This document shows, in pieces, positions 3,001-64,000 of a stretch of 64,000 bases of DNA. Below the pieces are notes generated by a model. The model saw only the letters and a program-made list of their open reading frames with translations. It did no database searches and was not told the DNA's origin. Numbering within the stretch: position 1 is the first letter of the stretch; every line of letters begins with the position of its first letter. The position numbers were made by a program, and so were the translations under genes. Origin of the DNA: a virus (lineage: Duplodnaviria; Heunggongvirae; Uroviricota; Caudoviricetes); the IMG/VR virus record IMGVR_UViG_2875697941_000001, one strand, 5' to 3'.

Positions 3001-5858
3001 TCATCTGCCAGTTTTAGGGCATCGCGCATAACTGGAGTGCCATCAGTACCAAGAACAGGTTTACCGTTCTCATCGAGCACCGGCACCTGGCGAATCTGAT
3101 CGCCATCCATCAGCACATCAAGACCGACGAACAGGTAGTTACTGAATGCCTCTTCACTCAGGAATTCTTTTGCTTCGTAATACCAGTTTTCCAGCACTGA
3201 TTTAGGCACTACATACGCAGTACGGGTGGAGCGACCGTTCTCATAGTTGAACGCCTCAAGCGCCAGCGCGGTCGTGGTTTTACCCAGCCCGGTGCCGAAG
3301 CCCAGGATGCCGCGCCCATCTTCGGACAGTCGGCGCACCTCGCTATTCTGGTAATCAAATGGCTGGCGCTTACCGCTTAATCCCTTCAACCCAAGCGGAT
3401 CGCCAGAGTGTTCATACGGGATATTGCTATTGAACACATCGTTGTATTTGGCAACCAGCTCATCGTAGCGATCGTGCGTCTTGATCCACTTATTGAACTG
3501 GTCCTCAAGCAGTGCCATCTGCTCGCGGTAGCCGTTCGCCGTCGCGCTATCTTTGCCACCGATACGCGCACCATTGAGATACTTTTCCAGCTGTGCCGGG
3601 AACCCGGTCGCGTTTTCACCTGATTTACGGTCCCACTCGTAGCGGATCTCGCCTGTTTCTTTATCCTTACGCTGGACGACACCGTATCGGTGCCCGACGA
3701 ACAGACCATCACCACCGTGATAGGTGTCAGAAACCATTTCGTCGCCTTCCAGCTGCACTGACTGCACATAGCGCAGATCCGGATAGCCGTTTTCCTGCAA
3801 AAATTCCAGAATGACGGAACGGTCGAACCAACGGCTATTGAGCTTAAACCGGATATTCTCTGCTGGCGTCTTGATGCGCTTCTCTTCGATCGCTGCCAGC
3901 TGATTAAGGACGTTGTTCTTTACTGGACCGTCGGGGAGCGTGGCGAGGAATTCCTGTTTTGGAGCCACTATCTCGTTAATGTCGCCGCTGGTGGCGCGGG
4001 CGAACGGAACAATCCCGCCATACGGTGAAACCGCAATGCCAGGGGTGCTGGCCAATAAATTAAGCAACTCGTCATCACTGGCTGGCAGTTCGCCGGTAAA
4101 CGCAAGGCGGAAATCATCGAGCTGGATTGGATCGCGAGTGAGATCACTGTAGAGATAACGCAGGGTGTCCTGATAGCTGGTAGAGTCATAACTGGCGCTG
4201 GAATCATGCGTAACCAGTTTTCCTGTCAGCTCGTCAGAAATAGTGCCATCCAGCTTAATTGCACCACGGAAAGCAAACCAGGCGCGCGCACCGCTCCCCG
4301 ATAATTTCGCTATCGGACCGCGACCGGGGTTACCAAAACGGTCAATCTCTGCCTGCAAACGGGATACCAGAGAAAGGCGCTGCTGTTCGATTTGTTCAGC
4401 ACTATGCCCGGCGGCCTTCATATCCTGATATTCAATTAACATCCGGCCAATCATCGCTCCACGATACAAGCGTTCACGGTATTTTTCAGGCTGGCTGTTA
4501 ATCCAGTCCACCAGCTGCACCATATCGTCGCTGATTGATGTGGTGTACTTATCGCGGACATTTGCCATCTGGGTAAATGTCATACCGAGACGGCCTTCTG
4601 TTGTAGTCAGGTTACGCTGAAGAGCCTCCCAGCTATCCGCGCCATAACTGGCAACCTCAATCTTCAGCTCCTTCCCGGCATCAGCTTCAATCCAGCGACC
4701 ACCAGCATATTTTTGCCATACGCCATTAATCAGGCGCATTTCCCCTTCATCAACAACATCTGCGGTCGGTGACGGTTCAGCCATATCGAGCAAAGACCAG
4801 TCGATACGGCTTTCGAAACGATGAATCAGCTTCGCTTTAAGAGCCTGGTTATCAATCTGACCGTCGGCACGAACCTCAATACGCCCCTGGAAGCCCTTTT
4901 CCTGGGTGCCATGAACAAACCGGCGGCCATCCTTTTCAAACCACTTGCCAGAAATAAACGTTGGCCAAAGCACATTTGCCGATTCAAGAGTGCTCTCATC
5001 CACCAGGGGGATTTTCTCAGCCATCTCCGCCGGATGTTTGCGCATCAGCACCACGTCAACGACCGTACTGGTCCCGTTTGCGTCAAAAGTACCGGTAGGC
5101 AAGCGGTGGGCACCAAGAAATTCAGCTTTACGGGATAGGCGCAGGCGTAACCGCTTCATGTTTGAACCTGAAACAATGGACGGCGGCACAATCACGCACA
5201 TGAATCCGCCAGGCTTTATCTTGTCCAACATGCGGAGCATGAAGTAAGACCCCATGTCCGTTTCTTCTGCGTAAGGCTTATCGATGTTGCGTGTGTTATC
5301 ACGACCGCCGAACGGAACGTTACCCACAACATGGTCGAATGAATCGTTAGGCGTGCTTACAGCCAGTTGTTCGAACGGGGAAATTTGTACGCTGTCTTCC
5401 GGATGTAACAGCTGGTTTATACGACCGGAAACACTGCTGATCTCAGTCGCGGTCATCACCGTACCAACCGGTTTTGTCTCATTAAAAACGCCGGTTCCCG
5501 CCGATGGTTCCAGAGTGTTACCTACGTCCGCGCCGTAGAGCTTCATGATCTCCCAGACACCTTCAGCGATCGGCTTTGGTGTGTAATATTCGGAGACGGA
5601 CCCGCCAATGCCGCCTTCACCGGTGTACCCAGCCAGGATCTGGCGCTGTTCATCTGTCAGTGTCGCGCCGTCCACCAGCGAATTAAGCAAATCTATCGCC
5701 TTCTGATTCGCCTCACGGCGCAGTCGGTCATAGCTTTTGCCTTCCACCTTTTCCACGCCGTATTTAATCGGCGCTCGGTGAGATGTTATTGCCCTAATGT
5801 ATTTCAATATTTCGCTGACACTTGAACAGCGAAACACTCCCATAGATAGCTTGTTCAT
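1..5858 (-). CDS. darB: Large N6-adenine methyltransferase / SF2 helicase fusion protein (P1 DarB-like), 3' end beyond window
   Basis: Own minus-strand translation: open frame from ATG 5858 (AAGGA RBS) to window start, >1900 codons; absent from ORF track because the stop lies outside. MTase motif I EPSAGTGVF, motif IV-like GNVPFG; helicase GTGLGKT, DEGH, QRNGRGAR. Divergent from prt as in P1. Confidence 0.7.
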   Translation of the reverse strand, partial: MNKLSMGVFRCSSVSEILKYIRAITSHRAPIKYGVEKVEGKSYDRLRREANQKAIDLLNSLVDGATLTDEQRQILAGYTGEGGIGGSVSEYYTPKPIAEGVWEIMKLYGADVGNTLEPSAGTGVFNETKPVGTVMTATEISSVSGRINQLLHPEDSVQISPFEQLAVSTPNDSFDHVVGNVPFGGRDNTRNIDKPYAEETDMGSYFMLRMLDKIKPGGFMCVIVPPSIVSGSNMKRLRLRLSRKAEFLGAHRLPTGTFDANGTSTVVDVVLMRKHPAEMAEKIPLVDESTLESANVLWPTFISGKWFEKDGRRFVHGTQEKGFQGRIEVRADGQIDNQALKAKLIHRFESRIDWSLLDMAEPSPTADVVDEGEMRLINGVWQKYAGGRWIEADAGKELKIEVASYGADSWEALQRNLTTTEGRLGMTFTQMANVRDKYTTSISDDMVQLVDWINSQPEKYRERLYRGAMIGRMLIEYQDMKAAGHSAEQIEQQRLSLVSRLQAEIDRFGNPGRGPIAKLSGSGARAWFAFRGAIKLDGTISDELTGKLVTHDSSASYDSTSYQDTLRYLYSDLTRDPIQLDDFRLAFTGELPASDDELLNLLASTPGIAVSPYGGIVPFARATSGDINEIVAPKQEFLATLPDGPVKNNVLNQLAAIEEKRIKTPAENIRFKLNSRWFDRSVILEFLQENGYPDLRYVQSVQLEGDEMVSDTYHGGDGLFVGHRYGVVQRKDKETGEIRYEWDRKSGENATGFPAQLEKYLNGARIGGKDSATANGYREQMALLEDQFNKWIKTHDRYDELVAKYNDVFNSNIPYEHSGDPLGLKGLSGKRQPFDYQNSEVRRLSEDGRGILGFGTGLGKTTTALALEAFNYENGRSTRTAYVVPKSVLENWYYEAKEFLSEEAFSNYLFVGLDVLMDGDQIRQVPVLDENGKPVLGTDGTPVMRDALKLADEATITARMNAIPHSNYRAVVFTKEQYARIPLRDDTVDEHAQDMLYDFVAAGRVASAMDSDSHRKEAARRRVLSEYSDTGTEKAEKYPYFEDMGFDSVIADEGHNYRNSYKNGREASQLAYLPTSAVAQSARDMAIKNAYLMKKNGGRGPVLLTATPVVNTPIDAYNMLSHVLPKEYWQNMGIYGPDDFVKFFGKTRLETVQKISGEVEEKMALMGFENLDALRGIFHRWVTLKTAEDVKDTVEIPELDEHQQDAPLTEEQLAAYEELRQQAEAAAKANNGVTTSVNEDGVIEHEKARPIFSIIRDMDRVCTDMDLYYRRITYRFLPEYADAVQQLADSLPKQATSEDDDSDDSITQQSQYSLIDKGEFIQLQVPEAFEQEVNKRLARFGIDEQTVTHPVTPKYAKLIATLKEFFPEGKQIIFTDEKTQHQKLKRIICNALNLEPSKVGILNAQTVAEAGKTGKKLKAVKPPKELPDEPTDAQIAKYNEQMALYDAYIAQQNEMSLGGLEKIAADFQEGRTPIIICNKKAEVGINLHRGTTDIHHLTLPWTPASIAQRNGRGARVGSNRASVRVHYYCGKGSFDEYRLKTLKRKAGWISDILRSDKSEMENADANDMIEMQMYTAKDDGERLAMMQVQMDKAKAAKRARQKEQATIDLQNYIKAQHAAGEDVEVLTAELERSKAELEKTTAEVAKFKQAAMAKAADNADWKARWGSVHHTDRMLLAQYRASLKSAIQRKANISQAISRYEKLLNRTQKAATDIKRLRPLVEDAINKGILDVDPDLVNHANEFLVIGDRSWRVGQYYDCAGDIVRIKSLDFDSQRADVEIIFTLRGTKSGNWDVKTLDKQVDVTPDEDAVMQKISGGVSIAGINDIISCDDFYRFQQRGMIKITDSYGVQTTESGYSIDFVGTYTDPLKHAVYPDRRDGALKSSIAKWVLGMMSEGNNRQIRSAETFLVELFGSNYGDVIASYGDTLSPEAIQEKIADAIAKMPEKTSQGAT

Positions 5859-5925
5859 TGGTAATCCTTAACAAGTGACTAGTGTTAAATTTCCGTTCAA
5901 ACACGATACGAATTATTCTAATTAA

Positions 5926-8656
<2,731 letters not shown>

Positions 8657-44520: not shown

Positions 44521-46248
44521 TTACTCAGAGTCACCGGCATCAATCGTGTCGCCGCTAATGAAGTTAAGCCCGCCTTTTTTGGCCATTGTCAGCGTTACAC
44601 GAGTGAAGTAATCAGCGCCGTTGCGTGGGTGCATATCGTTGATAGCCGAACCCCACAGCGTGGTACGGTTGACCAGCGCCGGAGTGGTCGGATGCTGGAA
44701 CGGGATGGCCGGGACAGCATCACCAGTCACGAAGCCTGCTTTACCCGGATTTTCATCACGGACGTAGCACAGCACATCCATCGAGCTGAACTGAATGTTC
44801 TCTGTCGTTAAGTTCTTACAAATACCAGCAGGTACTTCGTACACTTTCACGTTACCGAACAGGGTACCGATGTAGTGAACATACGGAGTCTGGATATAGT
44901 CTTCGGCTGGCTGGAAGAAATCCTTCGGCAACTGTTTGAAGAAAGATGCTGCATCAGCACCAGCAAACATCCCCATCGCACCAGAAGATTTAACGCGCTC
45001 AATAATGTCGCGATATACAGTCTGGAATTTGCCACGAATGATGGTTGCCCATACATCAAAGGACTGGTTAACCGGCAGAGCGATGTCAAAGGTGTCGGTC
45101 GCAAGAGTGCGCCAGATCATGATGCGAAGACGCAGCATATCCTGTTCATGAGACAGGTATTCCTTCAGGGTGCGGAACTGTAGGGAACCCAGGTCCAGAC
45201 CAAATTCACGCTGTGCTTCATACGCCGCCTGTACCGTGTGCTCAGCCGCGATAACGAACTGACTTGGGAACAGGGTGTATTTCTTCATTTCGTGGTTGAT
45301 CAGCGGGATCAGCTCAGGAGCGGCTTCAATATTGATTTCCGTCTCAATTGCGATCTCAGTGCCTTTATCCGGCGCTTTGGAGAACGACAGGGCAATCTGA
45401 CCAATGTTGTAGTTCAGAGAGCAGGTAACAGTGATTTGCTCACCAGCAGCATTAGTAAACGAGTGAAGTAGGCTGCCGGAACCGTTATCAACAACAGACT
45501 TAATACGGTTAACGTAGATGTTAGTGCGACCTTTTCGGATTGGTACATTCTGGCCTTCGAAGTCTTCCATCTTGAAGGTTGCGGTTTTGCTGGTGCCATC
45601 GGAGCTTGCCACCAGCACATAGCGGCGACGTAACTGGCTGTACACACCGACGGATTGCATGTCCAGAACATCACCAGCAGCATAAGAACCAAAAGATGAA
45701 CCTGCCACGTTAAAGACTTCATAGATGTCGGACTGGTCACGCGTAACCGGAATGAAGGTACACGCATCAGCGGTAGCTGCCCCCAACTGAACAGGCAGGA
45801 TCATCGCGAGGAATAAAGGCAGACGCATAACACCGTCAGAAACGCTCATCATCTCTGCTGCGACAGATTCCAGCATCGCTTTATTAGTGGCATCCATGCT
45901 ATTGCGGGTGGACTCAATCAGGCAGTTTTCCAGCGTCTGGTGGCAGGAGGCCAGAATTTCCGGACGCGGCATAGATTTATGTGCTGCGGCGTAGTCAGCC
46001 AGTGCACTTGCCCACGCTGTAGCGATTTGAGCGGTGGCATTATCAGAGATACCCACAAAAACCGGGTCTTTACGTGCAGCTTCAAGGATAGATGCGGCAC
46101 GCGCGGCATCATCTTTAATGAATTGGTTATCAGTACCGAACTGCGCAGTGCTTGCCCAGCCAAGCACAGCTTTAGAGCGTTTTGCGATATCTGCAATACG
46201 ATTCTGGTATTCGCGTAAGTTACTCAATTTACTCTTCCTTAAACACAA
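44521..46248 (-). CDS. Putative major head protein (P1 gp23-like)
   Basis: 575 aa, adjacent to parS as in P1; followed by hairpin GCGCCCC-loop-GGGGCGC at 44476-44494. Confidence 0.5.
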   Translation of the reverse strand: MCLRKSKLSNLREYQNRIADIAKRSKAVLGWASTAQFGTDNQFIKDDAARAASILEAARKDPVFVGISDNATAQIATAWASALADYAAAHKSMPRPEILASCHQTLENCLIESTRNSMDATNKAMLESVAAEMMSVSDGVMRLPLFLAMILPVQLGAATADACTFIPVTRDQSDIYEVFNVAGSSFGSYAAGDVLDMQSVGVYSQLRRRYVLVASSDGTSKTATFKMEDFEGQNVPIRKGRTNIYVNRIKSVVDNGSGSLLHSFTNAAGEQITVTCSLNYNIGQIALSFSKAPDKGTEIAIETEINIEAAPELIPLINHEMKKYTLFPSQFVIAAEHTVQAAYEAQREFGLDLGSLQFRTLKEYLSHEQDMLRLRIMIWRTLATDTFDIALPVNQSFDVWATIIRGKFQTVYRDIIERVKSSGAMGMFAGADAASFFKQLPKDFFQPAEDYIQTPYVHYIGTLFGNVKVYEVPAGICKNLTTENIQFSSMDVLCYVRDENPGKAGFVTGDAVPAIPFQHPTTPALVNRTTLWGSAINDMHPRNGADYFTRVTLTMAKKGGLNFISGDTIDAGDSE

Positions 46249-46339
46249 GGCACTTGTGTGAATCCCTTTTCGGAAGAGATTTTATTGAAAGTCACTTGTT
46301 GACTTTCTCGTGACAAGCAATTTTTTTATTTTTTTCGGG

Positions 46340-46442
46340 AGTAGGGGAGGAAGGTAAAATCCAAGGTGAAATCGTGGCGATTTCACCTTGAAATTTTAGA
46401 TAGATTTACTTTAAAAACAGTAGGTTAATAGTGAAATTTGAA
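46340..46442. other. parS: parS partition site (centromere)
   Basis: Palindrome GTGAAATCGTGGCGATTTCAC (box A ATTTCAC heptamers, box B TCGCCA hexamers) plus further box A/box B copies; just downstream of parB. Confidence 0.8.
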
Positions 46443-46452
46443 TGGCGAAAGT

Positions 46453-47454
46453 TTAAGGCTTCGGCTTTTTATCGAGGCTCTTTCTAAGGATATGCCCAAT
46501 CATCCTGTCGAGTTCTTCCTGTAACTCTTTTGAGAGTCGATTAAACTCATAAGAAAATGCACGGCCTTTCACGCGCTTCCTTGCAAAGCGATCCTTGTCC
46601 TCAAATTTCCATAATTCAGTAACTACGGACTTATCTTTAGAACCTTTATCCGTGAGTAGTGAGGCTTCCTTTGTTATCAAGCGCAGGATTTTATTTTTAA
46701 CTTCATCTTCGGCCATTTCTTCAATGGATAAGATGTCGTTTATTTCCGGGGATATGTTTTGAATAAGCTGATCAAACTCTAAATTCTTGTTCCCCATTTC
46801 GTCGCCAACAGCACAAAGCGTTTTGTAGTCCGAAAAGGTTAATTCCGACTGCACAGGGAAAAGGGCGACTAATTCTTCCGGAGCACTCGCTGCCTGGAGA
46901 GCACGCGTGACCTTCGCCTGAGACAGCCCTTCTTTGGCTGCAATATCCTTCTGACTCATCCCATCATTTTTCATTCGCATCAAACGCAGACCTATTTCTC
47001 GAATGCTGTGCTGCAATGCTGTCTGAACGTCTTTCGCTAAATTTTGCGCTTCCTGAACGCTGATCTCCTGGTCCGTGACTAAAACCCGCAACCCTACGTT
47101 CTCTAAGATGGCAGAAGCTCGACGCCGGGAACCATCCAAAATTTCAATTTTCCCTGTAGCCCGTCTAACACCTATTGCAGGGTAAAATTGCTGATGCTTA
47201 ATAGTGCTTCGGATACTTTTTAATGATTTTGGCGTAAGAGATGCCTGGTCACGCCCGTTGTTATGCTGATCAACAAAGGTATCGCTTTCTACCTGGTTCG
47301 GAGGTATTACCTCTTCAATAAATGTGGCCTGGCGACCAGTTGATAACTTGAATACCTGCTCGACTCGATCGCCAGAGGCTGAAGAACTATCAAATCCGCT
47401 TAATATTGAAGGATTAAGGGTTCGCCCAATTGTTGGTCTGTTTTTCTTTGACAT
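46453..47454 (-). CDS. parB: Partition protein ParB, 333 aa
   Basis: Size, position between parA and parS. Confidence 0.85.
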   Translation of the reverse strand: MSKKNRPTIGRTLNPSILSGFDSSSASGDRVEQVFKLSTGRQATFIEEVIPPNQVESDTFVDQHNNGRDQASLTPKSLKSIRSTIKHQQFYPAIGVRRATGKIEILDGSRRRASAILENVGLRVLVTDQEISVQEAQNLAKDVQTALQHSIREIGLRLMRMKNDGMSQKDIAAKEGLSQAKVTRALQAASAPEELVALFPVQSELTFSDYKTLCAVGDEMGNKNLEFDQLIQNISPEINDILSIEEMAEDEVKNKILRLITKEASLLTDKGSKDKSVVTELWKFEDKDRFARKRVKGRAFSYEFNRLSKELQEELDRMIGHILRKSLDKKPKP

Positions 47455-47470
47455 GGGGGTTTCTTACTCC

Positions 47471-48667
47471 TCAGTTAGATCTGATAAATTCAATACGGTC
47501 AAAAACTGCTTTAGCAAAATCTTCCGCGGCAATTCGCGCGTTCTTCAATGCATCAGCACTACCAACATACGTTGCCGGGTTAGCTGAAATAACAGTGTCA
47601 AAAGACTCGCCACAGCGTTCAAAACCGTCAAGGCGAGGGAGGACGACATCGAGCATATCCCCACCGAACACTTCTTTAGCCAGGCTATGGCAATACTTAT
47701 GGTCTGCCTTGTTACTCAATTTGGACATAAAACCAATGTTAGTCGCAAGCTGGCACTCGCAGCCTTCATCCGAAATGAGTTTCACCAACTCAGGAAGGCG
47801 GGCAACGTATTTAAGCGATGAGTGGAAATCAACCGTTGCAGGCGGCAGAGGTGTAAACAGTATATTGGCCGAGGCCAAAGCATTTTTCAGGAAGGCGTCA
47901 AGGTGAGGACCACTATCAACGAGGATAAAGTCATAATCGCTCTTCAGCTTATCAATCACATTTTCTTTCAGGACAGCATGGATGTTCTGACCCGGTAGAT
48001 GCTCATTGCACAGCTCTCTCCAATCGGATGCAATAAAGGCATCGTCAATCGACGCAGGCATAACGTCAACCCCAGGTACAACAGAAGGAACAATAAACTC
48101 CTCTAACAGCTCTTCACGGCTTACATTCTGCAACATAGCCTGTGCAGATGTTGCGTTTACGATACCAATAGAGTGTTTATGGCTTAAAAACATCGTTGCT
48201 GAAGATTGCGGATCAAGGTCAATAACCAGAATCCTTAAATCCTCCATAAGAAGATGAGGGTGAGCACGCATTGCATGCGCCAGAGAAACCGTCGATACAG
48301 TTTTTGACACACCGCCTTTAAGATTGGAGATGAAAATCACATACGCTTCGCTGTAGCGATCCCGGTATTTTGGCACTCCGCGATGTTCATATATGTCAAT
48401 GATGTTCTGAATTGACATCGCATATTTCATTGAAGAGCCAGCAGGGCGTTTATCGAAAACATAACCCTTTTCTTCCATTTCACTTACGGCATAGTCAACG
48501 TTCGCTCGAGTCAGTAGAGGCAATTTTGCCAGTGCCGCTTTCGCATAGACCTGGTAAAACTCGTTCGCGTGTAGCTCATCCTTTTGCAACTGTACTTGTT
48601 CAGTCAGAACATTGAGCATTCTGTTTGCTCTTTGAGCAACCTTGTGAAGCTGGCTGGAATCACTCAT
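47471..48667 (-). CDS. parA: Partition ATPase ParA, 398 aa
   Basis: Deviant Walker A KGGVSKT; N-terminal extension typical of type Ia ParA; upstream palindromic operator-like sequence at ~48700-48770. Confidence 0.85.
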   Translation of the reverse strand: MSDSSQLHKVAQRANRMLNVLTEQVQLQKDELHANEFYQVYAKAALAKLPLLTRANVDYAVSEMEEKGYVFDKRPAGSSMKYAMSIQNIIDIYEHRGVPKYRDRYSEAYVIFISNLKGGVSKTVSTVSLAHAMRAHPHLLMEDLRILVIDLDPQSSATMFLSHKHSIGIVNATSAQAMLQNVSREELLEEFIVPSVVPGVDVMPASIDDAFIASDWRELCNEHLPGQNIHAVLKENVIDKLKSDYDFILVDSGPHLDAFLKNALASANILFTPLPPATVDFHSSLKYVARLPELVKLISDEGCECQLATNIGFMSKLSNKADHKYCHSLAKEVFGGDMLDVVLPRLDGFERCGESFDTVISANPATYVGSADALKNARIAAEDFAKAVFDRIEFIRSN

Positions 48668-48805
48668 CGAAAGTCATCCTTTATGCTGTATTTTTGAATT
48701 TACTTAAAAATGCTGCATAAAATAATAATGTATGCACAGATGCTTGTACATAGCATTCTCTGCATGTTTGGTTCATTTTGCACGATTGAGAGTTACAAGG
48801 AGGAC

Positions 48806-48830
48806 ACAAAAAAGCCCCGTTCAGGGGCAT
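48806..48830. terminator. Rho-independent terminator after the T5orf172-like gene
   Basis: Hairpin GCCCC-GTTCA-GGGGC followed by TTTTTTG on the minus strand. Confidence 0.55.
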
Positions 48831-48835
48831 CAGTG

Positions 48836-49645
48836 TTATTTGCTAAGAGCAGCGAATAATCGTTCGAAATCGATAGTATCTATAGCACGCGTAAGCGCCG
48901 GAAGTTCAGCCTCAAAGTACCCGTGTCGATCGTAAAAGAAGGGACCGAAGAGCGAGGCATGTTGGATTCTACTTCGCCCCAGCCCGGACACACAGTTAAG
49001 CCCATTACCGGCTAAAAGGCTAAAAAACTTCTCTGGATTATCGTGGTAAAGCTGGGAATCAATGGTGGCGGTTAACTCTTCCATAGGGAAGCACACCCGC
49101 CTTGTCTCCCAGGGATATTTAGTCCGAAGCATAAACATTGCTTTCAGCAATTCACATTGAGCGCGGATCGCGTCCGGTTCATAGCCAGATATGGAGACAT
49201 AAGCCATGTCCCTCATTCCTGCGTCATCTTTGAAAGTCACGATAGAAGTAACATCCAGCTCTTTTTCGAAAGAGCGAGCAGCATCTACTGGACGCTGAAG
49301 TAAATCATTCGACTTAATGCGCTCGAGAATCCCTCCCCACATATCATTTAGATATTCGATATGAGCCAAAACCTTATCAAGACACTCTCGTGTAAACCAT
49401 TCAGTATGCCCGCCACCGGCGCTTTTCTCCCACGGCGCATTCCAGGGGAAAAAGGTTGCGTGTAAAGCCCGCTCAAGATTAACTATTGCCAATCGCGTAC
49501 CACGATAGACCCGTGAAAGCGCAAAATCGGGACTCACTTGTAGCCCTTTAAACCGTGCCAATGGACCACATGAAATGCCGATTTTAAAAGTATCTCCATT
49601 CTCCGGCACCAGAACGTAGAGGTAGTGTTGTTTCTCTTCTTGCAT
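48836..49645 (-). CDS. T5orf172/GIY-YIG-like domain protein, 269 aa
   Basis: N-terminal pattern HYLYVLVPENGDTFKIGIS...R...HTEWF fits the T5orf172 motif layout; own terminator; lies between incA-like iterons and the parA promoter. Confidence 0.5.
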   Translation of the reverse strand: MQEEKQHYLYVLVPENGDTFKIGISCGPLARFKGLQVSPDFALSRVYRGTRLAIVNLERALHATFFPWNAPWEKSAGGGHTEWFTRECLDKVLAHIEYLNDMWGGILERIKSNDLLQRPVDAARSFEKELDVTSIVTFKDDAGMRDMAYVSISGYEPDAIRAQCELLKAMFMLRTKYPWETRRVCFPMEELTATIDSQLYHDNPEKFFSLLAGNGLNCVSGLGRSRIQHASLFGPFFYDRHGYFEAELPALTRAIDTIDFERLFAALSK

Positions 49646-49678
49646 ATCAATACCACTGCTTGATGAGAACCGCGCAAA

Positions 49679-49935
49679 TGTTGACTATGCGCGAAAGTTA
49701 ATGTGAATAGTTGACTATGCGCGATGTGACTACAGTCAAAAGTTGACTGTAGTCGATTTAACTCCACCAAAGATCGACTATGTAAGATATTGTCGGGAGA
49801 AACGTTGACTATACGCGATGAAATGACCCTAAAAGCCATCTCAATAGCGACTTGCAGAATATTGACGCCAGCAAAAATCCACCAGCGTCAACGAATGTCG
49901 CCTATAGTCAACTTCTCGCTATCGCATATAGTCAA
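49679..49935. repeat. incA-like iteron cluster downstream of repA
   Basis: At least 7 copies of TTGACTAT/ATAGTCAA-containing ~19-bp repeats in both orientations. Confidence 0.6.
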
Positions 49936-49937
49936 TA

Positions 49938-50822
49938 TTATGGATTGCGCTTATGGATCTGGAAGCCGATTTTCCTGCCGTTTTTTATCTCTGAAAATTT
50001 AAGATATTCAATAGCTTCCAAATCTTTCATGGCTTTTCTGATAACGCTATTTTGCACGCTAACGGATGATTTGAGATTAAGCCTTGCTCTAAGGCGCTCA
50101 ATGCTGACAGGTGCCGGGTTGGCGGGTAGAGCCTCAAAGAATGTATACAGTACCTTGGCCGTCTCTTTGCGCCCGAGCTTATCCAGCATCTTCAGCTTCA
50201 GGATTCGCTTATAGTCAACATAGTAAAGTTCAGATAGCTGTTTCTGCGGCTGGATCTCGATAACATCAAGCTCGGTATTCAGGCTGCTATATGCCAACAA
50301 GTTGACGTTAATGTTATTGAGATGACCTTTTGCTGCCGGGAAGCGGAATTTGACAACTGTCTGCTGAATGCGTGTCAGAGAGTCATCAATACTTTTACGG
50401 AACGCCTTTGAAAGGCGCTTACGTGGATAGCCGCATCGATCGGCAAACTCGGAGAATGGCAGGGTGATTATGCCGTCATCATCAGGTGCGTAGTCAAACA
50501 ACGCGGAGGTTATGCCCACCCACACCTTAAAATCAGTATCCATATCCAGGCGTGGACCATGAATTTCAATTCCCTCATAGCCTTCCTGCTCAACAATTTT
50601 GAGGCTTGATAGTTCTTCGGTTGCGTTCGTTGTGTTTGTAGTAACTGACGATCCGCGACGTAGTGCCACATTGGTAGATTTTAAGGTTGGCACAAACACA
50701 CCTAAGCGCAACAAAGCGATGGGTTGTATAGTGCTATTGTTATTGGGTTTCAGGCTGTGGATTTCTCCTGTATTTCCTGCAACTTCTTCAACGCTAAGGA
50801 AGCCTTTATTTTCTTCCGGCAT
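49938..50822 (-). CDS. repA: Plasmid replication initiator RepA (P1 RepA family, divergent)
   Basis: ATG 50822 with GGAG RBS (track TTG 50879); segments TIQPIALLRLGVFVP and GPRLDMDTDFKVW resemble recalled P1 RepA; iterons on both sides. Confidence 0.7.
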   Translation of the reverse strand: MPEENKGFLSVEEVAGNTGEIHSLKPNNNSTIQPIALLRLGVFVPTLKSTNVALRRGSSVTTNTTNATEELSSLKIVEQEGYEGIEIHGPRLDMDTDFKVWVGITSALFDYAPDDDGIITLPFSEFADRCGYPRKRLSKAFRKSIDDSLTRIQQTVVKFRFPAAKGHLNNINVNLLAYSSLNTELDVIEIQPQKQLSELYYVDYKRILKLKMLDKLGRKETAKVLYTFFEALPANPAPVSIERLRARLNLKSSVSVQNSVIRKAMKDLEAIEYLKFSEIKNGRKIGFQIHKRNP

Positions 50823-50900
50823 CGTGGTTTCTCCATATGTGGCGCGGCCTGGCGTCATCTGGATTGCAGTTATCAACAACTGTGAATAGTCAGGCTCTAA

Positions 50901-51005
50901 AATCGCGTACAGTCAATGTTTCTGTCGCGTATAGTCAACAATAAATCGCGTGCAGTCAACAATAAATCGTGCACAGTCAACATAAAATCGCGTATAGTCA
51001 ATGTT
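50901..51005. repeat. incC-like origin iterons
   Basis: Five direct 19-bp repeats AAATCGCGTRYAGTCAAYR spaced 22 bp. Confidence 0.7.
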
Positions 51006-51126
51006 GATCCCATTTCAGGCCAGAAATGGCGCGGCTTACAGCGATCCGGGATCTTCTTTGGATCTTCCTAGGTTCTCTTTGGGATCTGTTTATTGGATCT
51101 ATGCTGTGGATAAGTTGAATAAACCG
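51006..51126. other. Plasmid origin core: GATC cluster plus DnaA box
   Basis: Six GATC sites within 51006-51099 and DnaA box TTATCCACA (minus strand) at 51106-51114, next to the iterons. Confidence 0.65.
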
Positions 51127-51156
51127 GCCAACAAAGCCGGTTGGAAGGAAGCCATA

Positions 51157-60990: not shown

Positions 60991-63900
60991 TCAACGAATA
61001 CTGATGCCGGAAGCGGCTTTTTTGGTCACAATCACCGTACAGTCGGTGATATTGCCTGCCCCCTGATTGCCTTTCTGGAAAATCTTAAACTCCAGAGTGA
61101 CGCTTCCCCTGCCACTCGGCATATCAATAACTGCACTGTAACTACCGGGAATGGCCCCTTTAGTTTCTCTGGATGCGATTAATACGCCGTTTTTGCGAAC
61201 TTCAAAACCATAACCCGTGTATCGCGTGCCTCCTGGGTTATTTCCGCTCCCCGGATCGTCATACGCTATACCGTTAAAAATAATGGGCGGAATAATAATC
61301 TGGCGGTCAAAGTTATGATCATCGCTGATGGTGACTGTAACCGTACCGTTTGGTGTTTCCGTGTTACCCCACGTACCGACTTTTTTCGGGAAGGCTTTTG
61401 ATACAGCTTTAACGAAATCTCCTCTGACCTGGGTCGCCTCCAGCATGCCCTTAATCGTACAGTTCTGGTTAATCGTGACATTGTTGAGCGTTCCTGAGTT
61501 CGCATTCACACTGCCACTGATATCCGCATTTTTCGCCGTCAGTCTCCCGTCTGATGTCAGGGAAAATGCCGGAGGATTACCGCCGCTGGTAATGGTGGGG
61601 GCCGTCAGGCGTTTCAGGAACACTTCATTCATGAATATCTGATCGCCCTGACCAACAAACATCGGCTTTGTGTTGCCATTCGCAGGATTAATCATCGCAA
61701 TCCTGTCTGCTGCCAGCAGCACCTGACTCTGCATGCCGTCAGGGGTGTTCTCAATACCGGCACCGATACCCGCAATATAAAGGCGTCCGTCCTGCATCTG
61801 CTGCAGCTTCACTGCCCACATGCTGTTCAGGTTATTATTTGTATCAACCTGAACCTTCTGTATCTGCTGGATCGCTGCACTCTGGTCTTCCAGTTTCTTA
61901 TTGACGGTCTGTGTTATTTCATTGCTGACATCCGTTATGGACGTCCTGATTTCAGTCAGGTCAGGCGCAAGCTGACCGTTATCAATCTGCGTCCACAGCT
62001 CCTGAGCCAGATGGGTTTTCCCTATCTCGCCTTTGAAAAAATCCAGATAGCCTGATGCATCATCACTCGGCTGACCGACAGCCTCCACGAATGCCGATTT
62101 GCCAACGGTGTTCACACTGCGAACGTAAAAATAATAATCATGGCCCGGTTTGATATTGATACTGGCGGCTATCCAGTACAGTGCCGTACCAAGATAACGC
62201 GCGCTGGTTTCAACCTGCCTGATATCCGCAATCCGTTTTTCCGAGAACCAGAACTCAAACTGTACCGTCGGGTCATAAACCGCAAGATGCGGCGTGGCGG
62301 TTATCTGAAAATAGCCCGGTGTCAGCTCAATCCGCGACGGCGCTGCCGGTGCGGCAATCCGGAACGATACCGATGCCGGATCGCCCTGCTGTCCCCACGC
62401 ATTTACCGCCCGGACTGTCAGCCTGTAGTTCCCCAACGCCAGTTGTGTGAAGCGGTATGTGGTTTCCGTCGTCCGGGCCGTGCTGACCAGCCGCTCACTG
62501 CCGTCGTCCGCTGTTACGGTCAGACGGAGCAGGAAGCTCACGCCCTTCACCACCTTCGGTGTGTCCCAGCGCGCCAGCACCTGATATTCCCCGCTGTCTG
62601 CGGTGACTTCGGCAGTCAGGTGCTGCACCGCTGGCGGCGTGACACCATTCACCGTGCCGCTCTGGTCGCCGTCAAAGTGCGCCCCGTTATCCACGATGGC
62701 CTCTTTTTCCGGCACATGCTGCACGGCGGTGATGGCATACGTGCCGTCGTCGTTCTCACGGATACTCACGCAGCGGAACAGTCGCTGGCGCAGCGTCGGC
62801 TGCTTCAGCCCCCACACGCTGTATCCGGCAACGCCGTCAGGAACACGGCTCACTTTTACCTTCACGCCGTCGGTGACGGACTGGACCTCCACGCTGACCG
62901 GATTGCCACTTCCGTCAACCAGGCTTATCAGCGTGGTACCGGAGGATGGCAGCGTGATTTCACGGTCGAGCGTCAGCGTCCGGGTCTGGCTGTTCACCGC
63001 CAGCACGCGCCCGCCGATGCTGATACCCGCATAGTCATCATCGCAGATTTCAATGACATCCCCCGGTACATGGCGAAGCCCTTCCGCACCCACGCTGAAG
63101 TCCACGGTCTGCGTTTCCAGCAGTTCCGTTTTAATCAGCCACAGCCCGGCGCGGTGCGCCTGCCCCCGGCTGGTACAGCCAAAGGCATCCATCTTCGTGA
63201 CGTTACGACCGTAACGGGCAATGGCCTGCGTATCTTCAACAAGCTCTGTCGCCGTCTCCCAGCCGTTGTTCGGGTCAATCCAGTTCACCTCAACGGCATT
63301 ATGGCGGTCCTTCAGGGCGCTGAAGCTGTAGCGGAACGGCGCGCCATCATCCGGCATCACCACATTACTGCGGTTATAGGTCCACACCTTATCCGACGGT
63401 CGGTCCTGCACGAACGTCAGCGCTGTGTGGTCAGGTACGCATTACAGGTGATGCGCGGCTCCGTGCCGCCAAAGCCGTCCGGCACTGACTGGTCGCAGTA
63501 CTGGCCGATGACATACAGCGCCCATTTGTCCACATCCGCCGCACCAAGACGTTTCCCCATGCCGTAGCGCGGGTGGGTCAGCATATCCCACAGACACCAG
63601 GCCGGGTTGTTGCTGTATGCCGGCTTAAACGTTCCGTCCCAGATACCGCTGTATTGCCGCGTCTGCGGGTTATAGTTCGACGGCACCTGCAGAATGCGCC
63701 CGCGAAGATGATAATTACGGCTCACCTGCTGGCTGCCGAACTGCTCCGAGTCCACCTGCACGCCGACCAGTGCCGTGTTCGGGTAGCACTGTTTCACATC
63801 GATGATTTCGGTGTATGACGACCAGAGCGTTTTGTTCTGCAGCTGGTCTGTGGTGCTGTCCGGCGTCATCCTGCGCATCCGGATATTAAACGGGCGCGGC

Positions 63901-64000
63901 GGCAGGCTACCCACCACCACCGAGGCCAGATACTGCGAGGTGGTTTTGCCCTTAATGGTGATGTCTTTTTCCGTCACCCAGCCACCATTACGCTGTATCT
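60991..64000 (-). pseudogene. J: Lambdoid host-specificity protein J, frameshifted; 5' end beyond window
   Basis: Two J-like ORFs in different frames: 63417-64000 ends ...[11 protein letters not shown]-stop, and 60991-63411 resumes at ...[11 protein letters not shown]; recalled lambda J has ~23 aa between, implying a ~70-bp deletion. Distal ~250 aa diverge from lambda J. Confidence 0.75.

Follow-up and report, generated by a model that had tools for sequence, protein, structure and literature searches.

The window analysed here is a 64-kb stretch of DNA (64,000 nucleotides), in which positions 46000-56700 form a P1-like phage-plasmid backbone. The elements of the locus follow in the order parS, parB, parA, a 269-aa open reading frame (ORF), an iteron array, repA, a second iteron array, a cluster of GATC sites, a DnaA box and upfA, and every gene from parB through upfA is carried by the minus strand. 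Past upfA lie mlp, ppfA, upfB, upfC, uhr, rdgC and dmt, as they do in P1, RCS47 and pD72-mcr1. Both flanks are about 99% identical to P1, one of them carrying gp23, parS, parB and parA, the other upfA, mlp, ppfA, upfB, uhr, rdgC and dmt. The sequence-only reading of this DNA had recognized the layout of the P1 replicon, and the layout was borne out feature by feature, all the replicon elements listed being found between 49680 and 51113.

We found that ParA, ParB and parS all correspond to the type Ia ParABS system of P1, with P1 incB specificity. The product of parB (46453-47454, minus strand; 333 aa) is identical to P1 ParB at 333 of 333 residues and matches TIGR00180, and the product of parA (47471-48667, minus strand; 398 aa) is identical to P1 ParA at 397 of 398 (99.7%). 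A parS centromere of the P1 incB type, with box A and box B ParB sites and an IHF site, was mapped from the P1 annotation to 46366-46448 (minus strand). None of the annotated A and B boxes differs from P1; a 131-nt alignment of the region to P1 contains five differences, of which four fall within parS, two of these at the IHF site and two in spacer sequence. The par operator and promoter, Ppar (48665-48750, minus strand, by the P1 annotation), are also kept, within a block of 99.35% identity that ends at 48769. Thus, both the P1-like parS and the coupling of the replicon to a P1-type partition system, which had been proposed earlier, are upheld by ParB at 100%, ParA at 99.7% and identical ParB boxes, the centromere itself lying outside the interval (49650-51130) for which the proposal was made.

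A partition system of the P7 type was considered and rejected: the par DNA of RCS47 is 99.3% identical to the window, and that of the window is 99.5% identical to P1. At the megablast level, P7 par DNA gave no match to the window, P7 matching the gp23 end only. The par system of RCS47 and SJ46 has been stated to be of the P7 type (PMC5241659).

Homology to P1 breaks off just past the par promoter/operator, at a left junction between 48769 and 48770. By blastn, 46000-48769 is 99.35% identical to P1; beyond it there is no nucleotide homology to P1 up to 51019, except for a 59-nt match within repA. Homology resumes at 51019 and exceeds 99% from 51156, and the first P1-backbone gene beyond this right junction is upfA (51157-51549, minus strand), the product of which is 98.5% identical to P1 UpfA. 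Since P1 homology halts at 48769 and returns at more than 99% at 51156, the 2.39 kb in between (48770-51155) appear to be a cassette, the p0111 module, that substitutes for the 1.63-kb incA-repA-oriR segment of P1. The cassette contains an ORF with a T5orf172 domain, the incA-like iterons, repA and the origin.

The T5orf172/GIY-YIG-like ORF (48836-49645, minus strand; 269 aa) matches Pfam PF10544 with an E value of 7.6e-6 and phrog_2876 over its full length, and is named a GIY-YIG nuclease family protein in RefSeq; an NCBIfam scan returned no model for this protein, nor for RepA. P1 lacks this ORF, which here separates incA from Ppar. Just past its stop codon and upstream of Ppar lies a predicted terminator-like hairpin (GCCCCTGAACGGGGC followed by a T run; 48814-48828, minus strand).

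The next gene, repA (49938-50822, minus strand), encodes the predicted iteron-binding initiator, 294 aa long as originally reported. RepA aligns with P1 RepA over its full length at 41% local identity (BLASTP, E value 2e-71) and 39.9% global identity, which agrees with the distant relationship to P1 that had been suggested for it; it is not the near-identical match to P1 or P7 RepA that would be expected of an IncY initiator. In Pfam, RepA scored 27.3 bits for Rep3_C (cut-off 21.1) and 22.0 bits for Rep3_N, just below the cut-off of 22.4. The Rep3_N score of P1 RepA is itself merely 25.7, and both proteins are weak hits to the Rep3 WH1 and WH2 domains. By these matches, RepA is a predicted initiator of the Rep3 superfamily, homologous to P1 RepA.

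P1 places the promoter of its repA, PrepA, inside the origin iterons, whereas no recognizable promoter lies there in the window. A scan of 48600-51200 for the sigma-70 consensus gave no hit within the origin iterons on the strand of repA, and a by-eye look at the minus strand for a repA promoter gave, at best, hexamers matching at 3 of 6 positions. The sequence thus offers no support for autoregulation by promoter occlusion.

To describe the iterons we used a 15-nt core, TCGCGTATAGTCAAC, and scanned the whole 64-kb window for it, allowing up to three mismatches. The core occurs in 12 copies, all of them within 49680-51002; shuffled sequences contained 1.3 copies on average and none of 100 shuffles reached 12. 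Five origin iterons, the equivalent of incC, occupy 50900-51006 on the plus strand, with cores starting at 50903, 50925, 50946, 50967 and 50988. The number of five is the one given before, but the uniform spacing of 22 bp that went with it does not hold: the measured spacings are 22, 21, 21 and 21 bp. The five iterons of P1 incC are annotated at the identical spacing of 22/21/21/21 bp.

A second, incA-like array (49680-49936) was also found where it had been placed, after repA, and comprises seven sites in both orientations. Five of them, at 49680, 49710, 49742, 49773 and 49804, share one orientation and are spaced by about 31 bp; four of these are good, and the one at 49773 is degenerate but in phase. 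The remaining two, at 49898 and 49922, have the opposite orientation, which is that of the origin iterons, and both adjoin the repA stop codon. P1 incA has the same two-orientation design with spacing of about 31 bp, but with six plus three, that is nine, iterons versus seven here. An iteron-like 15-mer with one mismatch to the core also lies within the repA coding sequence (50205-50219, plus strand).

The resemblance to P1 does not extend to the sequence of the iterons. No match to the 19-bp iteron of P1, GATGTGTGCTGGAGGGAAA, turned up in the window with up to three mismatches allowed, nor did the iteron core of the window match the P1 locus within three mismatches. Compared by eye, the two iterons agree at about 3 of 19 positions, which is the level of chance. 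With the cross-searches empty in both directions, the iteron sequences are unrelated to those of P1; the earlier view had been that they were only distantly related. The P1-type iterons that would mark an IncY replicon are absent from the window.

The other half of the origin, where host factors are expected to act, is closer to P1. Six GATC (Dam) sites, the number counted before, lie within 51006-51099 (at 51006, 51043, 51050, 51061, 51083 and 51096); this is the densest GATC cluster of the window and its sole place with at least five GATC per 100 nt. P1 has four Dam sites that are positionally aligned with GATC sites here. The DnaA box noted previously is present as one perfect copy (TTATCCACA; 51105-51113, minus strand), and aligns with the first of the tandem DnaA boxes of P1. 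P1 has two terminal boxes, the second of which is missing here through a 7-nt gap. Two further DnaA-box-like sites with one mismatch each (at 50870 and 50881, within 50870-50889) lie between the origin iterons and the start of repA, and P1 likewise has DnaA-box-like sequence between its origin iterons and repA. Between 51006 and 51155, the alignment to P1 has 40 differing positions (33 substitutions and the 7-nt gap), versus three in the next 845 nt, and 51019-51155 is about 75% identical to P1. The dense differences in 51006-51155, together with the return of homology at 51019, show that the host-factor half of the origin is homologous to that of P1 but diverged. The locus as a whole has the organization of a P1/RepFIB-like replicon, with phased iterons beside rep, GATC sites and a DnaA box, and a second iteron array downstream of rep. 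All these parts follow one another as in P1 and point in the same directions.

By homology with oriR, RepA and incA of P1, the following mode of action can be envisaged. RepA monomers would bind the five in-phase origin iterons, while host DnaA would occupy the boxes at both ends of the origin. The adjoining stretch with the Dam-methylated GATC sites would then melt, allowing loading of the helicase and entry of the host replisome, and after firing the hemimethylated GATC sites would be sequestered. The seven downstream iterons may titrate RepA and handcuff RepA-origin complexes, which would keep the element at about one copy per chromosome. The copies would then be segregated by ParA, ParB and parS.

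Whether the replicon should be typed as IncY or as p0111 had been left as a question, and the comparison with pO111_2 of E. coli O111:H- strain 11128 answers it in favour of p0111. The p0111 reference used was NC_013370 (pO111_2), which we take to be the RefSeq copy of AP010962, and the assignment rests on identity to pO111_2. Over 49650-51130 (1,481 nt) the window is 99.53% identical to pO111_2 in a gapless alignment, RepA is identical at 293 of 294 residues (99.7%), and all 12 iteron sites are in the same places. The annotation of pO111_2 splits the T5orf172 ORF into two fragments, whereas the ORF is intact here; otherwise there are point differences only. AP010962.1 (pO111_2) has been cited as the reference for p0111 rep (PMC11165635). 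Judged by these identities and by its flanks, the element is a p0111-type replicon in a P1-like phage-plasmid backbone. The neighbours of the replicon in p0111 elements are the same as here, namely parA, the T5orf172 ORF, repA and upfA.

The same replicon is widespread. Phages SJ46, JL22, RCS47, phi456 and others are 97.9-99.3% identical to the window over the 1,481 nt. The 1,481 nt are matched by 399 PLSDB plasmids, 396 of them at 95% identity or more and a dozen at 100% (for example, pD72-mcr1). These plasmids are mostly non-mobilizable, and Escherichia is their main source, Salmonella and Shigella accounting for some of them. Of 5,426 complete E. coli genomes, 419 carry the 2.2-kb cassette in full. 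In published surveys, p0111 accounts for 24 of 55 P1-like elements, the other 31 being IncY (PMC9603915), for 63 of 119 P1-like phage-plasmids (PMC10879196), and for 132 P1-like elements of Salmonella versus 94 with IncY (PMC11165635). In JL22, repA' (p0111) and a gene of unknown function, gp57, were described in the place of repA (IncY) (PMC9603915), and RepA of SJ46 was reported to be 42% identical to P1 RepA (PMC5241659). The replicon is, therefore, an already known and ordinary one, the p0111 module of about half of P1-like phage-plasmids, and the replacement of IncY repA by p0111 repA in such elements is already published (PMC9603915, PMC5241659).

To place the initiator among its relatives, RepA was compared with 5.8 billion proteins. 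An exact copy was present; the next cluster was 85% identical, and the one after it, from Proteus and Providencia, 53%. Below 53% came many RepB-family (RepFIB-type) RepA proteins of Klebsiella, Salmonella and Enterobacter, at 44-49%. RepA proteins of SSU5-type phages, at 43.5-45.4%, were slightly closer than those of P1 or P7 (both 40.9%). Together, the SSU5-type and the Klebsiella and Enterobacter plasmid RepA proteins belong to the same superfamily (Rep3 WH1/WH2) and are the closest relatives outside P1 (43-49%), and at this identity they are predicted to be too distant to share specificity with p0111 RepA.

These relatives bear on the possibility that the replicon is in fact RepFIB or IncHI1B and so falls into one of the classical groups, F or HI. 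Some GenBank records do carry the name 'RepFIB replication protein A', MOB-suite (via PLSDB) types pD72-mcr1 as IncHI1B, and RepA belongs to the same superfamily. However, the identity of RepA to the RepA proteins found in plasmids and SSU5-type phages, some of which are annotated RepFIB, is only 43-49%, and the nearest relative outside its own group is at 53%. Moreover, the plasmid matches at 99% or more, among those examined, were all P1-like in size and gene content. We consider membership of the F or HI groups very improbable, and return to the p0111 assignment.

The 85% variant comes from an E. coli element (L006, GCA_013513435.1), a distant genome of the P1 supergroup, in which it lies between pmgB-like and tail-tube genes, without adjacent parAB and without the T5orf172 ORF. 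It has five origin iterons, spaced by 21, 21, 21 and 22 bp, with the core TCGCACATAGTCAAC, and a two-orientation array downstream; the intragenic iteron-like 15-mer is identical and in the same place (L006 positions 5604-5618). The occurrence of the same design in another setting shows that replicons of this family travel as modules between genomes of the P1 supergroup. Protein searches identified no donor of the cassette outside phage-plasmids, there being one intermediate at 85% and then a gap to 53%.

Could the P1 replicon instead have diverged in place, by descent and without any exchange of a cassette? Such descent would leave behind what is seen in the common layout, in the spacing of the iterons and in the homology of the GATC/DnaA-box half to P1 (about 75% over 51019-51155). 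Yet the boundaries are sharp: the flanks are 99.4% and more than 99% identical to P1, and the core between them has no nucleotide match apart from the 59 nt; the cassette also contains an extra gene. RepA is slightly closer to the SSU5-type, Klebsiella and Enterobacter proteins (43-49%) than to those of P1 and P7 (40.9%). A graded series of intermediates between IncY and p0111 would favour such descent, and the nearest relatives found are at 85% and then 53%. Furthermore, p0111 and IncY elements are interspersed on the phage-plasmid tree, on which 17 switches were inferred (PMC11165635). Divergence in place is, hence, hardly credible. By far the best explanation, in which we have high confidence, is that a p0111-type maintenance replicon, homologous to that of P1 but differing from it in initiator and iteron specificity, has been swapped in as a 2.4-kb cassette beside the untouched parABS of P1.

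We noted that the T5orf172 ORF is positioned exactly at the recombination junction. It occurs in 401 PLSDB plasmids, at 90% identity or more in all of them, with no more distant plasmid homologues, and it shares with p0111 repA practically one plasmid set (401 versus 399 PLSDB records). A rather speculative idea, to which we give little credence, is that the gene could encode a homing-type nuclease which cuts the parA-incA interval of IncY elements and thereby drives their conversion to p0111. The observations that speak for it are circumstantial, namely the co-distribution on plasmids, the lack of distant homologues, the absence of the ORF from the 85% variant and its position at the junction. 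If the idea were true, such a homing drive would help to explain the repeated switches of replicon and the near-equal frequency of IncY and p0111.

The divergence of RepA and the iterons has consequences for incompatibility. Since both are unlike those of P1, the replicon should not feel the incA/incC copy control of P1, which supports a replication-control (incA/incC) specificity different from that of P1 (IncY). On the other hand, neither the ParB boxes of parS nor ParB itself differ from those of P1, and partition-mediated (incB) incompatibility with P1 should, therefore, persist. The 'different incompatibility specificity' attributed to this replicon should thus be qualified as applying to incA/incC only, with incB excepted.

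It may be argued that the element still behaves as IncY, either through cross-reaction between RepA and the iterons of the two replicons or through a dominant effect of the identical par system on the phenotype. The identity of the parS ParB boxes and of ParB to P1 does lead one to expect incB-type incompatibility, and no report of a compatibility test between p0111 and IncY was found in the searchable literature, where the two types are said only to be ones that 'can theoretically be compatible' (PMC11165635). Against cross-reaction stand the iterons, which have about 3 of 19 positions in common when compared by eye and gave no cross-matches, and RepA, which is about 40% identical to that of P1. 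IncY behaviour overall is, in our view, unlikely; membership of IncY is improbable as regards replication control, par being the one route by which it is likely. Our preferred reading remains that of a p0111 replicon with its own predicted incA/incC specificity next to the partition system of P1.

In practical terms, the window represents a p0111-type P1-like phage-plasmid, a class followed in surveillance studies for the resistance genes that it carries, such as mcr-1, blaCTX-M and blaSHV. Replicon-typing tools already recognize p0111, and the practical value of the assignment is small. The open-access literature searched does not appear to set out the base-level anatomy, which here comprises the core and spacing of the iterons, the GATC/DnaA half of the origin, the incA-like array and the exact points at which the cassette meets the P1 backbone. 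This anatomy may be useful in the design of mini-replicons or of incompatibility tests, and adds to the description of a known element rather than being a discovery.

The arrangement can be compared with that of P1 and P7, which have the same replicon and different par specificities. In that pair the par system has been exchanged and the replicon is common, whereas here the reverse is found: the replicon has very probably been exchanged and par is conserved. The P1/P7 pair and the present case are alike in that, in both, plasmid-maintenance modules of the P1 family appear to have been exchanged independently of one another.

The p0111 replicon has a second family member in a sequence that we refer to as L006 (positions 4700-6120), carried on contig DABKFZ010000018.1 of E. 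coli GCA_013513435.1. The RepA encoded there is 85% identical to that of the window, and the DNA of the two replicons is 76.6% identical over the stretch between the DnaA box and the beginning of incA. The L006 replicon has the iteron core TCGCACATAGTCAAC, and the 21/21/21/22 spacing is retained among its five origin iterons. It resides in the genome of a distantly related member of the P1 supergroup, at a genome position different from that in the window, flanked by a pmgB-like gene on one side and a tail-tube gene on the other; neither an adjacent parAB nor the T5orf172 ORF was found in this neighbourhood. The RepA coding sequence of the window also contains an iteron-like 15-mer, TCGCTTATAGTCAAC (50205-50219), which is unchanged, base for base, at the equivalent site of L006 (5604-5618), despite a DNA identity of only 76.6% between the two replicons. 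The intragenic 15-mer may serve as an additional site for RepA binding, or it may reflect coding constraint.

The T5orf172 (GIY-YIG-like) ORF that accompanies the p0111 cassette (269 aa; 48836-49645, minus strand) was found in 401 PLSDB plasmids, with at least 90% identity in each, and no more distant plasmid homologues were present in that database. The annotation of the p0111 reference plasmid pO111_2 splits the ORF into two fragments, and that of pD72-mcr1, a plasmid with an identical replicon, gives a shorter version; the ORF is therefore probably dispensable for replication. Public annotations of the homologues of RepA (49938-50822) disagree among themselves, the same protein being labelled 'RepB family plasmid replication initiator', 'RepFIB replication protein A', 'replication helicase' or 'hypothetical protein'; the pD72-mcr1 replicon is typed as IncHI1B by MOB-suite in its PLSDB entry.

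At the right end of the window (56698-64000), the P1-like backbone, which matches plasmid NZ_CP073955.1 at 100% identity as far as approximately position 56846, stops within dmt and leaves a truncated methyltransferase ORF of 707 aa, compared with 754 aa for that of P1. Some 150 bp here (56698-56848) match an end of the IS4-family element ISVsa5 (IS10-like), beyond which lambda-like tail genes (a Stf/Tfa-like ORF of 1108 aa, lom and gpJ) follow on the minus strand. No complete E. coli genome covered this dmt/ISVsa5/lambda-like junction at 80% or more; the junction may therefore reflect an IS-mediated cointegrate or integration, or else an assembly join.

The par region of RCS47 and SJ46, P1-like phages with the same p0111 module, has been described as P7-type (PMC5241659). 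This assignment is contradicted by the DNA: their par is 99.3% identical to window 46000-48700, which is itself 99.5% identical to P1, while the match to P7 is confined to the initial 398 nt of this segment, at its gp23 end. The promoter of repA in the p0111 replicon, as far as its sequence indicates, is not evident, with no sigma-70 consensus match within or adjoining the origin iterons (50823-51010, minus strand). In this the replicon differs from that of P1, where PrepA lies inside the iterons.
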